64,000 bases of DNA from Nevskiales bacterium. Lineage in GTDB: Bacteria; Pseudomonadota; Gammaproteobacteria; Nevskiales; JBOICV01. The number at the start of each line of letters is the position of its first letter. The first letter of the stretch is position 1. Positions 5,546 through 35,735 of this stretch are shown here, one piece after another. A program made the translations under genes and the position numbers. The notes below the pieces were generated by a model. That model had not been told where the DNA came from, searched no databases, and saw only the letters and a program-made list of their open reading frames with translations. Location of the stretch: assembly GCA_050740255.1 (NCBI GenBank), contig JBOICV010000092.1, positions 24,708 to 88,707 on the forward strand. The letters are read 5' to 3'.

Positions 5546-6019
5546 GTGCGGGCCATTGAGGTACAGCTCCGCGTGCAGCACGGCGGGGTCTTGTCGCTGA
5601 GTTATCAGCTTGTAGGCGACCTCACCCGGTTGCGTATCCCCGAAACACGGCCGCCACGCCGTGCTGACCAGCTTTGGCGGCACTCTTGCTTCGAAGCCTT
5701 CGTTCGCCAGGCTGGGCAACCCGCTTACCGCGAATACAATTTTGCGCTCTCGCGCGAATGGGCGGCGTATGGTTTTCGCAGATACCGCGAAGGCATGCAG
5801 CCGCTAGAAGCGCCTGATCCTGCGATCGTCGCGCGTAGTGCAGGCGAGCGGCTGGAGCTTGACGCAGTCATCCAGATAAAGGATTTTTTGGCCCTGCAAC
5901 TGGGGCTTGCCGCTGTCGTAGAAGAGCTAGATGGAACCATTTCCTACTGGGCGCTGTTGCATCCACTCGGCAAACCGGACTTCCATCACCCGGATACGCT
6001 GGCTGTGGAGCTTCGATAG
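5546..6019 (+). CDS. DOMON-like domain protein (start uncertain; the frame stays open upstream to about 5462 with no canonical start)
   Basis: The sequence LWRHSCFEAFV..YREYNFALSREWAAYGF is typical of proteobacterial DOMON-like proteins. The 5546 start is GTG. Confidence 0.55.
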   Translation: MRAIEVQLRVQHGGVLSLSYQLVGDLTRLRIPETRPPRRADQLWRHSCFEAFVRQAGQPAYREYNFALSREWAAYGFRRYREGMQPLEAPDPAIVARSAGERLELDAVIQIKDFLALQLGLAAVVEELDGTISYWALLHPLGKPDFHHPDTLAVELR

Positions 6020-26945: not shown

Positions 26946-27396
26946 AGCTGCGATCGCCGCCCCCCCTGCGGGCAATAACCGCCACAAGGCCCGCTGCCTG
27001 GCGCTGCAGGCGCTTTATCAGCATCAGCTCAATGGCCTGTCCCTTGGCGAGTTGCTCAATCAGTTTTTGCGCGGGAAAGAAATGGATCGCGCCGATCGTG
27101 AGTATTTTAGCCGCCTGGTTGGCGGGGTGATGGAGCACGAGGGCGAACTGGTCATGGCCTTCGCGCGCTATCTCGACCGGCCGCTGACCCAGCTTGACCC
27201 GGTTGAGCGCGCGGTGCTGCTGATCGGCAGTTTCGAGTTGCTGCACTGCCCGGAACTGCCCTACCGCGCGGCGATCAACGAAGCCGTGCAGCTGGCCAAG
27301 ATTTATGGCGCCAGCGAAGGCCATAAGTACGTCAATGGCATCATGGATCGCCTTGCGCGCCAGGCGCGCGCCGTGGAACTGGCGGCGGCGCCGTAA
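26938..27396 (+). CDS. nusB: Transcription antitermination factor NusB
   Basis: 152 aa with RHKARCLALQALYQ.. and AINEAVQLAKIYG..YVNGIMDR. It overlaps ribH by 8 nt. Confidence 0.95.
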   Translation: MSEAAIAAPPAGNNRHKARCLALQALYQHQLNGLSLGELLNQFLRGKEMDRADREYFSRLVGGVMEHEGELVMAFARYLDRPLTQLDPVERAVLLIGSFELLHCPELPYRAAINEAVQLAKIYGASEGHKYVNGIMDRLARQARAVELAAAP

Positions 27397-27427
27397 ATTC
27401 ACCGCATCTTCCGGGCGGGCCGCCGCA

Positions 27428-28516
27428 GTGACCAACGAATTTGAGATTATCCGCCGCTACTTCCAGCGGCCCCCTAAGCGTCCGGACGTAGTGCTGGGTT
27501 CGGGCGATGACGCGGCGCTGTTGCAGCCGCCGCCCGGCATGCTGCTGGCTGCGACGACCGATACGCTGGTGGCGGGCCGGCATTTCCACGACGACTGGCC
27601 GGCGGCCGATATCGGCTGGCGGGCGCTGGCGGTGAATCTGAGCGATCTGGCGGCGATGGGTGCGCAACCCGCCTGGTTTACCTGCGCATTAACGGTCCCT
27701 GAAGCGGATGAAAAATGGCTCGCCGGGTTCGCTCAAGGCCTGTTTGAACTTGCGGCGCAATACCCGCTGGATCTGGTCGGCGGCAATCTAAGCTGCGGAC
27801 CGCTCAGCATCACGATTCAGGCTCTGGGGTTCGTAGCGGCAGAGAAAGCGTTGCGGCGCGACGCGGCCCGACCCGGCGATCTGATCTGTGTGACCGGCAC
27901 GCTCGGCGATGCGAGCTTGGCCTTGCAATTGCTCGATACCCGCCCCCCCAACCCTCCTTCGACAAGCTCAGGACAGGCTCTCCCGCAAGGGGAGGGGGAA
28001 CAGAGTTTTTCTCCTCCTCGCGCGGAGGGTGTAAGTAAAAATCTCCCTCCCCCTCGTGGGGAGGGATTAAGGGAGGGGGGCGCAACAGATGCGCAGCTTA
28101 TCTATCTAACACAGCGCCTGCGCCGTCCCACCCCGCGCATCGCGGCCGGTTTGGCGCTGGCTGGCGTGGCGCATGCCGCGATAGATATTTCGGACGGCCT
28201 GGCGGCCGATTTGGGCCACGTGTTGGCCGCCAGTGGCGTCGGGGCTGAAATCCGCACCAACAAGCTCCCGATGTCTCCCGCGTTTGCACGCCTCGCGCCT
28301 CGCGCCTCGCGCCTCCCGCTACAACTTTCCGGCGGCGACGATTACGAGCTATGTATCTGCCTGCCGCAGGATAAACTAGCCGCCGTGCAGGCCCGCTTGA
28401 ATGTGCCGCTGACCGTTATTGGTGCGGTCACAGCTACAGCGGGACTGCGCGATCTAAGCACTCCGGGAGGTCAACGCCTGACACCGGCGGGTTACGACCA
28501 CTTTCCCAATATATGA
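27428..28516 (+). CDS. thiL: Thiamine-monophosphate kinase carrying an internal repeat-derived insertion of about 40 aa
   Basis: The GTG start gives VTNEFEIIRRYFQRP..LGSGDDAALL..TDTLVAGRHF..AVNLSDLAAMGA. The track ORF from 27305 overlaps nusB and is too long. Confidence 0.9.
   Translation: MTNEFEIIRRYFQRPPKRPDVVLGSGDDAALLQPPPGMLLAATTDTLVAGRHFHDDWPAADIGWRALAVNLSDLAAMGAQPAWFTCALTVPEADEKWLAGFAQGLFELAAQYPLDLVGGNLSCGPLSITIQALGFVAAEKALRRDAARPGDLICVTGTLGDASLALQLLDTRPPNPPSTSSGQALPQGEGEQSFSPPRAEGVSKNLPPPRGEGLREGGATDAQLIYLTQRLRRPTPRIAAGLALAGVAHAAIDISDGLAADLGHVLAASGVGAEIRTNKLPMSPAFARLAPRASRLPLQLSGGDDYELCICLPQDKLAAVQARLNVPLTVIGAVTATAGLRDLSTPGGQRLTPAGYDHFPNI
27940..28082. repeat. Composite of three REP-like hairpin units lying in frame inside thiL
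   Basis: Three units are visible. Unit 1 is CTCTCCC-gcaag-GGGAGGG. Unit 2 is a CTCCTC..GGAGGG unit. Unit 3 is a perfect 9-bp TCCCTCCCC-ctcgt-GGGGAGGGA plus attaaGGGAGGGGGG. A ccttcgacaagctcaggacagg stretch precedes them. Confidence 0.8.
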
Positions 28517-31551: not shown

Positions 31552-31950
31552 ATGCGTATTGGACAGCTCGCAAAGACCGCTTGCGTCGGTGTGGAGACCA
31601 TCCGTTACTACCAGCGCATCGGTCTGTTTCCGAATCCACCCAAGCCCTATGGCGGCACACGTCACTACGATGCAGCGGGTCTCGTGCGACTGCGCTTCAT
31701 CCGCCGCGCGCAAGGGTTGGGGTTCTCGCTGGAGGAGATTCGCGCCCTGCTGGAACTTTCGCGTGAAGACTGCGCCGACGTGCAACGGCTCGCGACCCGC
31801 AAGCTCGACCTGGTGCGCGGCAAAATCAAGGACCTCAAACGCATGGAAACGGCGCTCAAGGGTACGCTGGCGCGCTGCCGGACACGTCGCCGGCACGCTC
31901 CCTGTCCCATCATCGAAACACTCGCCGAGGCTGATGACAGCACCACTTGA
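31552..31950 (+). CDS. merR: Hg(II)-responsive MerR-family transcriptional regulator
   Basis: It has the HTH MRIGQLAKTACVGVETIRYYQRIGL, the Cys in SREDCADV, and a C-x8-C pair (ARCRTRRRHAPCPIIETL) at the spacing of MerR Cys117/Cys126. Confidence 0.88.
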   Translation: MRIGQLAKTACVGVETIRYYQRIGLFPNPPKPYGGTRHYDAAGLVRLRFIRRAQGLGFSLEEIRALLELSREDCADVQRLATRKLDLVRGKIKDLKRMETALKGTLARCRTRRRHAPCPIIETLAEADDSTT

Positions 31951-31978
31951 CTCCGTACCCCAGTACGGCGTTTAGGCT
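31947..31978 (+). promoter_or_regulatory. MerR operator / PmerT-type promoter
   Basis: The -35 TTGACT (31947-31952) overlaps the merR stop codon. The dyad CCGTAC-ccca-GTACGG spans 31953-31968. A 19-nt spacer precedes TTAGGC (or 20 nt to TAGGCT). The Tn501 arrangement is TTGACT-N19-TAAGGT with TCCGTAC-N4-GTACGGA. Confidence 0.8.
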
Positions 31979-32008: not shown

Positions 32009-32353
32009 ATGCAGGATCGCAGCAAAACCTGGTTATCCCTCGGCGTAGTGGGCGCAGTCGGTGCATCCCTGTGCTGTACCTTGCCGCTGCTGCTCGTCAT
32101 GGCCGGTTTGGGCGGAGCCTGGCTTGGGACTTTGCAGCTGTTTGCACCCTTCCGGCCGGCCTTTATCCTGTTCGCGTTCGCCGCGCTGGCCGTCGCGGGG
32201 TGGCAGATTTTCCGCACAGCGCCGGCCTGCGAGGCAGAGCAGGTTTGTGTGGAGCCTGCGTTGCAGCGACGGCGCAAAGGGATATTTCTGGGCGTGACTG
32301 CCTTGGTCGTCGCACTGATTGCTAGCCCCTATCTGGTCGCATATCTGGGGTGA
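32009..32353 (+). CDS. merT: Mercuric ion transporter MerT
   Basis: 114 aa with three TM helices. It has the vicinal Cys pair in TM1 (GASLCCTLPLL) and the cytoplasmic-loop pair C-x5-C (APACEAEQVCVEP). Confidence 0.85.
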   Translation: MQDRSKTWLSLGVVGAVGASLCCTLPLLLVMAGLGGAWLGTLQLFAPFRPAFILFAFAALAVAGWQIFRTAPACEAEQVCVEPALQRRRKGIFLGVTALVVALIASPYLVAYLG

Positions 32354-32670
32354 AAGCCATGAAATCCGCCATTCACGCCCTGCTGCTGATGTTGGTGGTG
32401 CTAGCGCCCGTGCGAGTGTTCGCCGCCGACCGCTGGGTGCGGCTATCCGTGCCGGACATGAACTGCCCGGCCTGCCCGGTAACGGTGCGCAAAAGCCTCG
32501 AACGCGTGACCGGCGTGGAAGTGCAATCGGTGGACCTCAAGTCCAAAACAGCGGTCGTGCTGATTCGCGATGACCGTGTGACCGACGCCGCGCTAACCCA
32601 GGCCACCGCCGGCGGCGGCTACCCCTCTGTCGTCGTTCCGGAGAACATCTATGAATCTGACCGCCATTGA
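32350..32670 (+). CDS. merP: Periplasmic mercury-binding protein MerP (HMA domain)
   Basis: It has a signal peptide and the motif VPDMNCPACPVTVRKSLERV. The GTG overlaps the merT TGA; an ATG at 32359 is an alternative start. Confidence 0.85.
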   Translation: MKAMKSAIHALLLMLVVLAPVRVFAADRWVRLSVPDMNCPACPVTVRKSLERVTGVEVQSVDLKSKTAVVLIRDDRVTDAALTQATAGGGYPSVVVPENIYESDRH

Positions 32671-33034
32671 TCCCGCGCTCGGCCAGATGGGCGAATTTGC
32701 CAGGGCCACCGGCAACGTCACCGCGCCAGTGCAGAAGCTGCGCGAGATGACGCTCTTGCGCGATGGCGCGCTACCGGCGCGCATCAAGACGCTCGCGGCC
32801 TTGCTGTGGGCTGTTTCCAGCCGCTGCGAGCCCTGTATCAAGTTCTATGCGCAAAAGGCGCGAGAGCTGGGGGCGAGCGATGCCGAGTTGGGCGAGATGC
32901 TCGCGCTTGCACCCACGATGGGCGCTTGCGTGGCGGAGATGTGGGCACTAAAAGCCTTCGCCGCGGCAAAGAATCCAACCGAAGCAAACCAACCACCTAA
33001 AGGAGATGACAATGCTGAAACCTGCTGCGTATGA
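32651..33034 (+). CDS. Carboxymuconolactone decarboxylase (AhpD-like) family protein with a CxxC motif and a C-terminal Cys-Cys
   Basis: 127 aa with RBS ggag. The sequence LPARIKTLAALLWAVSSRCEPCIKFYAQKARELGASDAEL matches the CMD/AhpD core. The tail reads ..GDDNAETCCV*. Confidence 0.7.
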   Translation: MNLTAIDPALGQMGEFARATGNVTAPVQKLREMTLLRDGALPARIKTLAALLWAVSSRCEPCIKFYAQKARELGASDAELGEMLALAPTMGACVAEMWALKAFAAAKNPTEANQPPKGDDNAETCCV

Positions 33035-33512
33035 TTTCTTCCGCGGATTTCTCGTCGTCGCGCTGATGTTGCTGGCGCATTCCGCGCTGGCTGCACCGAA
33101 AGCCGTAGCGGAATTGACCCTGAACTATCAGAAGTCGGCGGACCGGCAGATGTCCGATGGCGGACATCTATTTGCTCGATGCCAGTACCTTGGCTCGGGC
33201 GATGGCACAGCGACCGGGGCCATTGCCGGCCGCGTCGGCTGGGATTTGCACGAGGATCAGTCACGCGACGACCTGCACCCGACCCAGTTCCGCGGCTTCA
33301 TCGAGCGTGACGGCAAGCGCCATCCGTTCCAGATCATTGGCGTGTTTACGCCGGAACCCGGCCAGCCGATCCGTCGCTGGAAGCTCACCGGGACCATCGT
33401 TTTTGATGACAACGCACTCTTCACCGGCCAGCATGCCCCCGTAACCGGTTACGTTGAAACCGGAAGCTGGAAGCATCGCTACACTGTGCTGGTGGACAGT
33501 GACGTCAACTAA
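33012..33512 (+). CDS. Secreted protein of unknown function (mer-operon member)
   Basis: An ATG lies 6 nt after a strong RBS aaggag. The signal peptide is MLKPAAYDFFRGFLVVALMLLAHSALAAP. No motif was recognised. It overlaps both neighbouring genes. Confidence 0.65.
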   Translation: MLKPAAYDFFRGFLVVALMLLAHSALAAPKAVAELTLNYQKSADRQMSDGGHLFARCQYLGSGDGTATGAIAGRVGWDLHEDQSRDDLHPTQFRGFIERDGKRHPFQIIGVFTPEPGQPIRRWKLTGTIVFDDNALFTGQHAPVTGYVETGSWKHRYTVLVDSDVN

Positions 33513-34137
33513 GTGCGTGGCCCGTATCCTGAGCCTGTTCCCGAAGCTGGATAATGCAGCTCAGCGCCTTTCGCTTGCGCTGTACCGCCAGCTGGCTCGG
33601 GGCGAACCGGTATCCACAACCCGACTCGCCGCCGCCGTTGATCGCGACGCATCAGCGGTAAGCGAGCAATTAAGCCAATGGCCCGGCGTGTTTTACGACG
33701 AGCAGGGTGCCGTGATCGGCTACTGGGGCTTGAGTATCCACCCGATGGCGCACCGGTTTCGGGTTAACGGTCGCAATCTCTACACCTGGTGCGCGTGGGA
33801 CAGCCTGTTCATCCCCGAGTTGCTTGGCGAGACGGCGCACGTTGAGTCGTTCTGCCCGGTGACGCGGACACCCATCCGGCTCACCGTCACGCCGCAAGGC
33901 GTCGAAGACCTACAGCCAGCAACCGCAGTGATGTCGCTGATGCTGCCGGCCCACAGCAGCGTGATGTCGGACATCGCCGCACGCTTCTGCCACTACGTAC
34001 ACTTCTTTGAATCCGCGAACGCTGCAACGCGTTGGCTGCCCGAGAACCCCTCAACAATGGTTGTCGGAGTCGGGGAAGGGTTCGAGCTGGGGCGAATGAA
34101 GAACGACATTCAGTATCTTGACCAAGCGTTAGCCTGA
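33499..34137 (+). CDS. merB: Organomercurial (alkylmercury) lyase MerB (start GTG 33499 or GTG 33517)
   Basis: The catalytic contexts RNLYTWCAWDSLFIP (Cys96/Asp99 equivalent) and ARFCHYVHFFES (Cys159 equivalent) are present. The N-terminus LALYRQLARGEPVS resembles MerB. Confidence 0.85.
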   Translation: MTSTKCVARILSLFPKLDNAAQRLSLALYRQLARGEPVSTTRLAAAVDRDASAVSEQLSQWPGVFYDEQGAVIGYWGLSIHPMAHRFRVNGRNLYTWCAWDSLFIPELLGETAHVESFCPVTRTPIRLTVTPQGVEDLQPATAVMSLMLPAHSSVMSDIAARFCHYVHFFESANAATRWLPENPSTMVVGVGEGFELGRMKNDIQYLDQALA

Positions 34138-34174: not shown

Positions 34175-35029
34175 TCAGCAATTGCGCCGTTCGCAGGCGA
34201 ACAGTGTGGCATTCAGTAGCATGGCGATCGTCATCGGTCCGACGCCGCCGGGTACCGGGGTTATCCAACCCGCGCGGGATCTCGCAGCATCGAATTCCAC
34301 ATCGCCGATCAGTCGTCCGTCGGAGTCGCGGTTGATGCCGACGTCAATCACGACTGCGCCCGGTTTTATCCACGCCCCTTTCACAAACTCGGGCTTACCG
34401 ACGCCGGCCACAACGATGTCGGCTTGCGCGACGATGTCCGCTAGATCGCGGGTCTTGCTATTGCAGATCGTGACCGTCGCGTCGGCCAGCAGCAGTTCCA
34501 GGGCCATCGGCCGCCCGACGATATTGGACGCCCCCACCACCACCGCGCGCGCGCCGCGAGTGGCGACGCCGGTGGTTTCTATCAGCTTCATCACACCATA
34601 AGGCGTGCAAGGGCGCAGCAGCGGACGCTTCTGCGCCAGCCGGCCGAAATTAAATGGATGAAAGCCGTCCACATCTTTATCCGGCCGGATGCGCTCCAAC
34701 ACATGCTCAGCGTTGATGTGTGCAGGCAGCGGTAGCTGCAGCAGAATGCCATCCACGGTTTCATCTGCGTTAAGCCGGTCAATTTCGGCCAGCAGTTCGA
34801 CCTCGGTCAGTGAGGCGGGCCGATGCAATACTTGCGAGCGAATTCCGACTTCGGCGCAGGCTTTGTGCTTGTTGCGCACGTAAATCTCGGACGCTGGATT
34901 CTCGCCAAACAGAATGACGGTCAAGCCCGGGGCACGCTGGCCGGCACGCAGGCGCGCGTCAATGCGCTGCTTGATGCCGGCACGAAGACTGGCAGCGATG
35001 GCCTTACCGTCTATCAGTTGGGCGGGCAC
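34175..35029 (-). CDS. folD: Bifunctional methylenetetrahydrofolate dehydrogenase / methenyltetrahydrofolate cyclohydrolase
   Basis: The GTG start gives (M)[15 protein letters not shown].., for 284 aa. It has the segments ILLQLPLP and [17 protein letters not shown]. Confidence 0.95.
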
Positions 35030-35089
35030 GGGAGTGGCTAAGCATCGGATTCGGGCCGTATTTTCGCATGTTTCGCGCAGCACATTTCA

Positions 35090-35168: not shown

Positions 35169-35245
35169 CGGGGTGTAGCGCAGCCTGGTAGCGCACCTGC
35201 CTTGGGCGCAGGTGGTCGGAGGTTCAAATCCTCTCACCCCGACCA
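35169..35245 (+). tRNA. tRNA-Pro (anticodon TGG)
   Basis: The cloverleaf was folded by hand: acceptor CGGGGTG/CACCCCG, anticodon arm CCTGC-CTTGGGC-GCAGG, T-loop TTCAAAT, encoded CCA. Confidence 0.95.
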
Positions 35246-35269
35246 GCAAGCTTAGAATATGCGGCATCC

Positions 35270-35346
35270 GTGCCCGTAGCTCAGTTGGATAGAGCAACGG
35301 CCTTCTAAGCCGTAGGTCGCAGGTTCGACTCCTGCCGGGCACGCCA
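35270..35346 (+). tRNA. tRNA-Arg (anticodon TCT)
   Basis: Acceptor GTGCCCG/CGGGCAC, anticodon arm ACGGC-CTTCTAA-GCCGT, T-arm GCAGG-TTCGACT-CCTGC, encoded CCA. Confidence 0.95.
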
Positions 35347-35373
35347 GAATTTTATGAGGAGCGATTTTCCTTA

Positions 35374-35407
35374 TCCCCTCTCCCTTTGGGAGAGGATGGG
35401 TGAGGGT
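35374..35407. repeat. REP-like palindromic element between tRNA-Arg and tRNA-His
   Basis: The sequence is tCCCCTCTCCCtttGGGAGAGGatGGGTGAGGG, the same family as 3508 and 22967. Confidence 0.8.
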
Positions 35408-35411
35408 CAAT

Positions 35412-35488
35412 GGTGGCCGTAGCTCAGTTGGTAGAGTCCCGGATTGTGATTCCGGTTGTCGCGGGTTCGAGCCCCGTCGGTCACCCCA
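35412..35488 (+). tRNA. tRNA-His (anticodon GTG, with the extra 5' G-1)
   Basis: G-1 plus acceptor GTGGCCG/CGGTCAC, anticodon arm CCGGA-TTGTGAT-TCCGG, encoded CCA, then a T6 run. Confidence 0.95.
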
Positions 35489-35586
35489 TTTTTTGTGTTA
35501 CGCAGGCGCGCGTTACATTAAAATGCGCGCCCCTGTTGGATGTTTTGGCACAGGATGTGCCAACGCGAAGGCCTGGCCTGAGCGAA

Positions 35587-35616
35587 GGCAATCGAAAATG
35601 ACATTTTTCGATTGCC
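35587..35616. repeat. Perfect 12-bp-stem hairpin GGCAATCGAAAA-tgacat-TTTTCGATTGCC in the tRNA-His/tRNA-Lys spacer
   Basis: Read directly from the sequence. The 171-nt spacer also holds three shorter hairpins (GCGCGC..GCGCGC, TGGCAC..GTGCCA, GCCGTG..CACGGC). Confidence 0.7.
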
Positions 35617-35659
35617 GTGGCGGCACGGCGGCAGGATGCCCCGTCGCCGCGGCAGAAAT

Positions 35660-35735
35660 GGGCCGTTAGCTCAGTTGGTAGAGCAGGAGACTCTTAATCT
35701 CTTGGTCGTAGGTTCGACTCCTACACGGCCCACCA
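35660..35735 (+). tRNA. tRNA-Lys (anticodon CTT)
   Basis: Acceptor GGGCCGT/ACGGCCC, anticodon arm GGAGA-CTCTTAA-TCTCT, T-arm GTAGG-TTCGACT-CCTAC, encoded CCA. Confidence 0.93.

Follow-up and report, generated by a model that had tools for sequence, protein, structure and literature searches.

The mer operon is a textbook metal-resistance operon with a short accepted list of accessory genes (merC, D, E, F, G, H and others). In MerA, a C-terminal cysteine pair (C558/C559 in Tn501 numbering) binds incoming Hg(II) and passes it on to a buried, redox-active pair of cysteines, and the handing of Hg(II) to the MerA core is normally the job of NmerA. Expression of merTP alone makes E. coli hypersensitive to Hg. 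Here we describe a gene, termed CMD-CC, embedded in a mer operon within a stretch of 64,000 nucleotides from a Nevskiales bacterium (contig JBOICV010000092.1, positions 24,708–88,707; this whole 64-kb stretch is called the window). The gene (32651–33034, + strand) encodes a 127-aa predicted cytoplasmic protein with the carboxymuconolactone decarboxylase (CMD)/AhpD fold and five conserved cysteines. From the observed fold, cysteine signature and its conservation, loss of catalytic residues, operon and operator context, and synteny, we consider it probable, at roughly 0.6, that CMD-CC is a dedicated, MerR-controlled cytoplasmic mercury-handling protein on an AhpD/CMD fold that no longer works as AhpD.

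Small AhpD-like/CMD proteins such as Legionella pneumophila lpg0406, Thermotoga TM1620 and RclX belong to the same superfamily as CMD-CC and share with it the all-helical fold, a similar size and a CxxC at the equivalent helix N-terminus. CMD-CC differs from them in the replacement of the catalytic Glu and His, a fixed Tyr, an extra cysteine (Cys93), a disordered tail bearing Cys-Cys (CC) and a near-fixed C-E-P-C sequence, and its context is a mer operon, whereas AhpD-like/CMD proteins are found in antioxidant or aromatic-catabolism contexts. Like MerA, CMD-CC has a vicinal cysteine pair in the last residues of a flexible C-terminal segment, but it has neither a flavoprotein domain nor an NAD(P)H or FAD site, and the recipient pair would be a CxxC on a helical bundle, not a CxxxxC by FAD. 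The CMD-CC tail is an analogue of the MerA tail and not a homologue; sequence and fold are unrelated. The role proposed for CMD-CC, that of a small protein whose thiols accept Hg(II) and shuttle it among the transporter, MerB and the MerA core, resembles those of NmerA and MerP, although these have the HMA beta-alpha-beta-beta-alpha-beta fold and two cysteines (GMxCxxC), in contrast to the all-alpha bundle and five cysteines of CMD-CC. The absence of an HMA match in Pfam and the all-helical, not ferredoxin-like, model indicate that CMD-CC is not an HMA-family member.

The fold family is known, whereas the CMD-CC subfamily and its mer association are apparently undescribed. NCBI and JGI name the members only as 'carboxymuconolactone decarboxylase family protein' or 'AhpD family alkylhydroperoxidase'. 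In the literature and model libraries searched, no paper or curated model describes the CMD-CC family, no paper combines merT, merP and CMD, nothing functional was found on AhpD with mercury or on Rmet_5989-5991, and neither expression nor Hg-binding data for CMD-CC came to light. This agrees with the suspicion voiced in the original prediction for this locus, which was made from the sequence by a model, that no mer component of this type had been described. One genome paper (on Pseudomonas sp. SCT) lists 'merA-ahpD' in passing, and a preprint by Haft and Gwadz, which mentions neither MduS, ArsM and GSU3128 nor carboxymuconolactone or peroxidase, gave no lead on the MduS/ArsM-AhpD families.

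The same module is present in the merRTΔP cluster of Cupriavidus metallidurans CH34 pMOL30 (Rmet_5990-5992), in which merR, a mer operator, merT and a frameshifted merP are followed directly 3' by a CMD gene. The CH34 orthologue (WP_011229335) is 124 aa long, is 52% identical to CMD-CC and ends in SCCQ; its gene is intact, as are merT and the operator. In the CH34 literature, the cluster consists of merR, merT and ΔmerP only ('truncated merRTΔP'), with the mechanism given as 'HgTra' and the function as '?', and the CMD gene is left out (PMC2864759; PMC6266692). As for ΔmerP itself (5714–5996 in our locus L027), the defect is a frameshift, with the signal peptide in one frame and an intact-looking HMA domain in another.

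Fold, cysteine signature and catalytic residues

The original prediction described a 127-aa CMD/AhpD-fold protein with CEPC and a terminal CC, and the 127-codon frame translates exactly so, with SSRCEPCIKFY at residues 56–66 and a C-terminus reading ...NPTEANQPPKGDDNAETCCV. Pfam CMD (PF02627) matches residues 30–104 (E=4.2e-11, 43.1 bits vs. a cutoff of 23). In an AlphaFold2 model built on 60 homologs (mean pLDDT 88.8, pTM 0.79), residues 1–110 form an eight-helix core. The codons of C59-E-P-C62 (32825–32836, +) correspond to a CxxC at the N-terminus of helix 60–72. The flexible C-terminal tail (about residues 111–127; 32981–33031, +) includes Cys125-Cys126 (codons 33023–33028), and from about residue 113 its pLDDT is about 50, consistent with the flexible look that had been ascribed to it earlier. 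A third conserved core cysteine, Cys93 (codon 32927–32929, +), was missed by the original prediction; it lies in the motif MG(A/G)CV(A/G)E and is specific to the mer-linked clades described below, with no equivalent in 5DIK (MGGGPS) or in control CMD proteins.

The top Foldseek match to the model is 5DIK, the structure of lpg0406 (TM-score 0.75 by query and 0.85 by target, root-mean-square deviation 1.7 Å), followed by TM1620 (1P8C/1VKE), RclX (7Y4R) and 2QEU. A profile search of PDB sequences agrees with Foldseek on these small AhpD-like relatives (5DIK, E=5e-13). Matches to solved decarboxylases (2AF7, 4G9Q) are weak, and no pca genes, which would be expected around a PcaC-type decarboxylase, occur among the open reading frames (ORFs) flanking CMD-CC. 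Because the sequence has no signal peptide, CMD-CC should be cytoplasmic.

No NCBIfam model reaches its cutoff with CMD-CC. The best matches are ArsM_AhpD_UU (NF041537; E=9e-12, 44.4 bits vs. 510) and MduS (NF045649; E=3.5e-8, 32.8 bits vs. 380), the latter match ending within two residues of the model C-terminus. These models, the GSU3128 family (NF041047) and TIGR04169 (arsenosugar-associated, peroxidase-like) are relatives with AhpD domains in the model catalogue, from which CMD-CC differs in having a single domain without a methyltransferase domain or selenocysteine, its ORF containing no in-frame TGA. The AhpD-domain selenoprotein families are catalogue entries without function (PMC13188914). 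Such families show that AhpD-like CxxC/CxxU domains have been repeatedly recruited to metal or metalloid pathways.

Among 5.8 billion proteins searched with CMD-CC, 145 homologs were found, and cysteines were counted in the 120 listed. CxxC is present in all 120 and CEPC in 117, and CC, or CxC in one subgroup, occurs within a few residues of the C-terminus in all but about two. A sequence identical to CMD-CC is found in a Nevskiales metagenome-assembled genome. In the 60-sequence alignment, the invariant residues include D7, P8, R31, K46, C59, P61, C62, Y66, E96, W98 and C125, and C93 and C126 are nearly invariant. Judged from these sequences, conservation of the cysteine features is far beyond what chance would give. 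The linker from the end of the WALKA helix to CC has a median length of 16–18 residues and is variable, unconserved and rich in Ala, Ser, Gly, Glu, Asp and Pro. A conserved vicinal cysteine pair that ends an unconserved linker, modelled with low confidence, looks like a flexible capture arm.

By contrast, the residues which serve catalysis in AhpD are gone. The 238 listed members of the two mer-linked clades were compared with a generic CMD set (n=64). Glu at 12 residues before the first cysteine is found in 53/64 generic proteins and in 0/238 mer-linked proteins, the corresponding residue of CMD-CC being Thr47. His at position +4 after the second cysteine (CxxCxxxH) likewise occurs in 52/64 and 0/238, respectively, and Tyr at this position in 7/64 and 237/238. 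In CMD-CC, Tyr66 stands where AhpD has the catalytic His, a position supported by alignment to lpg0406 (CPGCIGFH). Of the 238, 232 have CEPC. CMD genes taken as controls from plasmids of Klebsiella and Acinetobacter encode CxxCxxxH, no Cys93 and no tail, and have no mer neighbours. The idea that 203 Klebsiella and 84 Escherichia plasmid matches might be hidden mer-linked copies was rejected for the one inspected, which is of the generic CxxCxxxH type, tail-less and without mer genes nearby. Canonical CxxCxxxH domains were also seen in tandem: P0151 (1161 aa) and P0156 (852 aa) contain six CMD domains each. At the level of sequence, the mer-linked family has shed the acid-base machinery of AhpD and acquired three further cysteines, in keeping with a shift from redox catalysis to soft-metal ligation.

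This loss bears directly on the possibility that CMD-CC is a mercury-stress-induced thiol-repair or antioxidant enzyme, which would keep MerT cysteines or other thiols reduced, or remove peroxides, with Hg binding not being its function. Membership of the CMD/AhpD superfamily, the presence of CxxC and the annotation of the close structural relatives lpg0406, TM1620 and RclX as antioxidant proteins are consistent with such an enzyme. However, no member keeps the catalytic Glu or His, the score against the AhpD-domain model TIGR00778 (ahpD_dom) is a marginal miss (27.1 bits vs. a cutoff of 27.8), and no ahpC-like gene is found in the inspected CMD-CC neighbourhoods. Moreover, an invariant CC on a disordered acidic tail together with an extra core cysteine is a hallmark of soft-metal capture, and is absent in generic CMD proteins that are catalytically intact. 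We thus regard an antioxidant function as unlikely, if still worth weighing against mercury handling; the option of a redox partner, raised in the original prediction, is weakened by the same loss of Glu and His.

The mer operon of the window and mer linkage in two clades

In the window, CMD-CC is part of a tightly packed operon in the order merR, MerR operator-promoter, and merT-merP-CMD-orf166-merB. The top NCBIfam match of merR (31552–31950, +) is TIGR02051 (E=1.5e-41, 141.6 bits; cutoff 150.85), and Pfam MerR, MerR_1 and MerR-DNA-bind also match; its cysteines in EDCADV, LARCRT and APCPII are at what we take to be the positions of the three Hg-binding cysteines of MerR. Unusually, merR is co-directional with the operon, whereas it is divergent in most homolog loci. 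The MerR-type operator/promoter (31947–31978, +), read directly from the sequence, is TTGACT-CCGTACcccaGTACGGcgt-TTAGGCT. The -35 element TTGACT (31947–31952) overlaps the merR stop codon, a perfect dyad CCGTAC-N4-GTACGG (31953–31968) lies within a spacer of 19–20 nt, and the -10 element is TTAGGC/TAGGCT. The arrangement is very similar to that of Tn501 PmerT.

Downstream, merT (32009–32353, +) encodes the inner-membrane Hg(II) importer (Pfam MerT PF02411, E=1.3e-26, 93 bits), which has a Cys-Cys pair in the first transmembrane segment (TM1) and a cysteine pair in the cytoplasmic loop (CEAEQVC). merP (32359–32670, +), starting 5 nt after the merT stop, encodes the periplasmic Hg(II)-binding protein with a signal peptide and a CPAC site (TIGR02052, E=5.4e-24, 84.5 bits; Pfam HMA). 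The start ATGs of merR (31552) and merP (32359) were taken from gene calls on an identical contig (L031). The start of CMD-CC, with a GGAGA Shine-Dalgarno sequence 6 nt 5' of its ATG, overlaps the 3' end of merP by 20 nt, and the Shine-Dalgarno sequence of orf166 (AGGAG, 33001–33005) lies within the region coding for the CMD-CC tail. orf166 (33012–33512, +) encodes a secreted protein with a signal peptide, of a family without assignment and without a Pfam or NCBIfam match. The organomercurial lyase gene merB (33517–34137, +; NF009710, E=1e-63, 214.5 bits vs. a cutoff of 193; Pfam MerB) has a probable GTG start 4 nt after the orf166 stop in a frame open from 33454, and its translation contains WCAWD and FCHYVHFF.

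The gaps at successive junctions from merT to merB are 5, -20, -23 and 4 nt. Because the genes overlap or closely abut, CMD-CC is transcribed, and probably also translationally coupled, with merT and merP. As had been stated in the original prediction, the operon lacks MerA: a true MerA query gave no tblastn match in the 64-kb window, and no MerA active-site motif was found there. The operon is flanked by cysS and by a convergent gene resembling folD (34175–35083; judged from the translation), and it shows no GC anomaly and no mobile-element genes among the adjacent ORFs.

To sample the family across bacteria, one genome per species (185,579 species) was scanned with peptide patterns from CMD-CC, which gave 26 loci spanning Alpha-, Beta- and Gammaproteobacteria, Bdellovibrionota/Oligoflexia and Planctomycetota. 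As the patterns were drawn from the CMD protein alone, this sample is unbiased by context. Mer neighbours were then sought by tblastn with the Mer proteins of the window, and in 23/26 loci merT was located about 1 kb or less from the CMD gene. The commonest order is merR (divergent)-merT-merP-CMD, without merA. Annotated examples of merRTP-CMD are CH34 pMOL30, the Ralstonia solanacearum megaplasmid and Methylocapsa pRX1, and the module is intact in the last two. A true MerA is encoded near the CMD gene in only one of the 26 loci (L012), where it belongs to a second merTPA operon.

Other arrangements occur in particular lineages. In a Tn3-type transposon of Legionella pneumophila (L032), the order is CMD-merR-merT-merP-merA-DUF3330-merC; in the subgroup with a CxC tail, it is merT-merP-CMD with merR convergent; and in another lineage, CMD-merR-merT is followed by an RND efflux system. 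Locus L041 contains merR-CMD alone, in which the MerR promoter TTGACT-ccgtacccgggtacggcgcg-TAGCCT is located about 10 nt before the CMD start. The identical perfect dyad is present between merR and merT in L001, L003, L023, L027, L028, L035 and L036. L030 is a degraded CMD copy beside a transposase, some copies are on plasmids or transposons, and several loci lie within copper or other metal islands. The MerTs linked to CMD genes keep the TM1 CC pair in 26/26 cases and the cytoplasmic-loop cysteine pair in 25/26.

The association extends to a sister clade. A hidden Markov model (HMM) search of 1.84 billion cluster representatives returned just 8 clusters at E<=1e-30, beyond which generic CMD proteins made up an extended list of matches. 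Intermediate matches retain CEPC...Y, GC(V/P)GExWALKA and CC in an acidic tail, and a search with an alignment of these intermediates yielded 925 proteins, including those of Nitrospira and Acidobacteria. The full five-cysteine signature, with GCxGExW, is present in 118/118 of the members listed among the 925. The two clades are only about 40–50% identical, and the terminal CC is conserved in both. Five sister-clade contexts were sampled; four of them are linked to mer genes, and one of these has another transporter. In Nitrospira (L046/L047), the order is merR, an insertion sequence, a thioredoxin-like gene, merF, CMD and orf179; in L048, it is merR-orf92-merT-merP-cupredoxin-CMD-MerA-merB-orf179; in L050, it is merR-CMD-orf179; and in L052, CMD lies four genes downstream of a MerT-HMA-MerB fusion. 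Homologs thus are distributed non-randomly with respect to mer genes in both clades and the CC tail is conserved, so that neither of these two outcomes named in the original prediction as refuting it (random distribution, unconserved tail) was obtained, and in L041 the CMD gene itself follows a MerR operator directly.

The conserved partners of CMD-CC are MerR, MerT and MerP (or MerF), and linkage to merB is occasional. MerB as a conserved partner was rejected: tblastn found merB in 0/26 window-clade loci, and the merB of the window belongs to a separate orf166-merB module. The original prediction had proposed an acceptor or relay for MerT/MerB; the comparative data fit an Hg(II) acceptor or relay on a thiol-oxidoreductase fold in an operon that lacks MerA, whereas a dedicated MerB relay is not supported as a general role.

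Proposed Hg(II) handling and competing explanations

Judged from cysteine content and gene context, CMD-CC most likely receives Hg(II) in the cytoplasm from MerT or MerF, as an acceptor, relay or sink. MerP and MerT (MerF in some relatives) would supply Hg(II) at the cytoplasmic side of the membrane, and delivery to this inner face is expected because the partner MerTs keep the cysteine pairs of TM1 and of the cytoplasmic loop. Cys125-Cys126, on a disordered tail of about 16 residues, would take Hg(II) from transporter cysteines by thiol ligand exchange, and in the window might also accept Hg(II) from MerB after cleavage of the C–Hg bond. The tail would then swing Hg(II) to a core site comprising Cys59, Cys62 and probably Cys93, where several thiolates would bind it with high affinity and keep it from the other thiols of the cell.

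Where MerA is present, CMD-CC might hand Hg(II) to the MerA C-terminal cysteines. This would include two MerAs encoded in the same operon as the CMD gene (L032, 547 bits; L048, 584 bits; TIGR02053), which are true MerAs, lack NmerA and keep an SCCAG/SCCAA end. An NmerA-like role in Hg(II) acquisition fits because these MerAs lack NmerA yet keep their own C-terminal pair; since that pair is kept, the CMD tail as a substitute for it was rejected for true MerAs. In merRTP-CMD modules without merA, CMD-CC would serve as a sink or buffer, or would feed a MerA encoded elsewhere.

Several points weigh against mercury handling by CMD-CC as proposed here. That CMD-CC binds Hg(II), which way the metal is passed on and where it ends up are inferred from the chemistry of cysteines and from gene context. 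Most CMD modules have no merA within about 6 kb, so a pure relay lacks a visible recipient, and stoichiometric sequestration is a costly form of resistance to a metal that is actively imported. The idea of an NmerA substitute is drawn from only two operons, and NmerA-less MerAs also occur without CMD-CC. In addition, three of the 26 window-clade loci (L006, L008 and L025) are orphan copies without mer genes which retain the tail, and one of the five sister-clade contexts (L051) is an orphan without mer genes. Finally, the loci are not phylogenetically independent, as the module moves on plasmids and transposons. Despite this mobility, linkage that survives many rearrangements points to a functional tie: function is favoured over hitch-hiking because the arrangements differ between lineages in merR direction, CMD position, the replacement of merT by merF and the occurrence of merR-CMD alone.

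The frequent absence of merA could also be explained by a 'split MerA', in which CMD-CC and a partner do the work of MerA between them. The CC tail would capture Hg(II), the CxxC dithiol would supply two electrons for its reduction to Hg(0) at the CxxC/Cys93 site, and a flavoprotein disulfide reductase, housekeeping or encoded nearby, or thioredoxin would re-reduce the disulfide formed. Such recycling would be akin to that of M. tuberculosis AhpD, which runs through lipoamide and Lpd. The parent fold is that of a CxxC thiol-disulfide oxidoreductase. The CMD gene occupies the usual slot of merA after merP, and merA is absent from most modules. Methylocella loci have a glutathione-reductase/Lpd-like flavoprotein without CC and a second merP just downstream, a similar flavoprotein is encoded upstream in L037 and L030, and the operons of the sister clade include a conserved 8-cysteine thioredoxin-fold protein. 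However, both acid-base relay residues of AhpD are lost, most loci have no adjacent reductase, and, by an estimate from textbook potentials, thermodynamics disfavours the reduction of a Hg(II)-dithiolate by nothing more than a protein dithiol. The gene is also kept beside a true MerA in L032 and L048, for which an accessory role fits better than replacement. Reduction by CMD-CC therefore seems distinctly unlikely. As a milder version of this idea, the merRTP-CMD cluster may be a natural 'import-and-sequester' module, in which CMD-CC would be a dedicated multi-thiolate Hg(II) sink.

It is improbable that the module handles another thiophilic metal (Cd, Au, Ag, Cu(I) or Pb), the mer-like genes being divergent paralogues and the mercury link in the window secondary. 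In this direction point the scores of the window MerT (86 vs. 150 bits), MerP (84.5 vs. 92.55) and MerR (141.6 vs. 150.85), which are slightly under the NCBIfam equivalog cutoffs, the location of several loci in copper or other metal islands, and a paper whose title refers to Cd transport by the MerT family. Nevertheless, the MerR model outscores those of CadR/PbrR, ZntR and CueR widely, the operator is a classical mer dyad with a long spacer, and the operons of the window, L032 and L048 themselves encode a true MerB or MerA. That the gene is a mere passenger on mer-carrying mobile elements, with no metal role, is hardly credible despite the copies on plasmids or transposons and the few orphans, given that it is operonic and probably translationally coupled, has a MerR operator directly upstream in L041, keeps its linkage through many gene orders, different transporters and two clades with only modest identity, is chromosomal in the window among ORFs free of mobile-element genes and of GC anomaly, and has all five cysteines under strong purifying selection.

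With mercury handling as the preferred reading, this looks like a mer operon with an undescribed, widespread component, which often forms a merRTP-CMD module without merA. As a further conserved component, it would extend the set of proteins that traffic Hg(II). The family comprises well over a thousand database sequences from many phyla, its hosts including CH34, R. solanacearum, an L. pneumophila transposon and Nitrospira, and the oversight of so common a mer-linked gene in model organisms would probably come as a surprise to specialists in mercury resistance. MerA-less or otherwise 'truncated' merRTP clusters, now dismissed as remnants or mere importers, may be complete functional modules. 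Whether such modules reduce, relay or hoard Hg(II) matters for the reading of mer genes in environmental metagenomes, in which merA is the usual marker, and is relevant to bioremediation designs that pair merT/merP with a cytoplasmic Hg sink. For fold evolution, the family would exemplify a redox enzyme which lost its acid-base residues and gained metal-ligand cysteines and a MerA-like capture tail.

Accessory genes of mer loci and other features of the window

The orf166 product has only 25 homologs. Its gene adjoins merB in two otherwise different mer contexts, L042 (6001–6498) and L043 (6001–6513), and thus looks like that of an undescribed merB-associated accessory protein, in a module travelling with merB. 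The position of orf166 recalls that of merG, although no MerG model matched. In the sister clade, orf179 (L046, 5417–5956; L048, 7590–8129; L050, 5390–5929) encodes a conserved protein of 179 aa that seems to carry a signal peptide and matches nothing in Pfam or NCBIfam; two of its copies share 72% identity. In L046 and L050, orf179 comes directly after CMD, and in L048 it lies after merA-merB. The assignment of orf166 and orf179 to one family was rejected (BLASTP E=0.14).

Between merR and the transporter gene of sister-clade mer operons lies a gene for a 92-aa, 8-cysteine thioredoxin-fold protein with CPIC, CPSC and CC (L046, 4420–4698; L048, 3248–3526; 75% identity between copies), which may be another thiol relay or redox partner. 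In L052 (1081–2319), a 412-aa product matches Pfam MerT, HMA and MerB and appears to be a transporter-chaperone-lyase triple fusion; its gene adjoins that of an ArsR-type regulator. In Methylocella (L015, 6449–9074, and similarly L016/L017), the region 3' of the CMD gene contains a 222-aa ORF without a family, a second true merP (104 bits) and the gene for a 447-aa flavoprotein of the glutathione-reductase/Lpd/MerA-like type, which has a CALRGC active site and no C-terminal cysteine pair and scores under all NCBIfam cutoffs. These genes may constitute a variant Hg or thiol redox module. Among candidates from other mer systems, orf4 and orf5 of pMR68 were rejected as members of the CMD-CC family; one is hypothetical, and the other resembles phosphoribosyl-AMP cyclohydrolase.

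Just past the convergent gene at 34175–35083, apparently folD, the window has four tRNA genes (Pro-TGG, Arg-TCT, His-GTG and Lys-CTT) at 35169–35735 (+). Repeated strings like 'PPPRGEG', 'PLPKGEG' and 'HEGEG' appear in translations at about 27800–28090, inside a long ORF (27305–28516), and at about 35250–35410, which points to a short GC-rich repeat element with copies inserted within genes or close to them.

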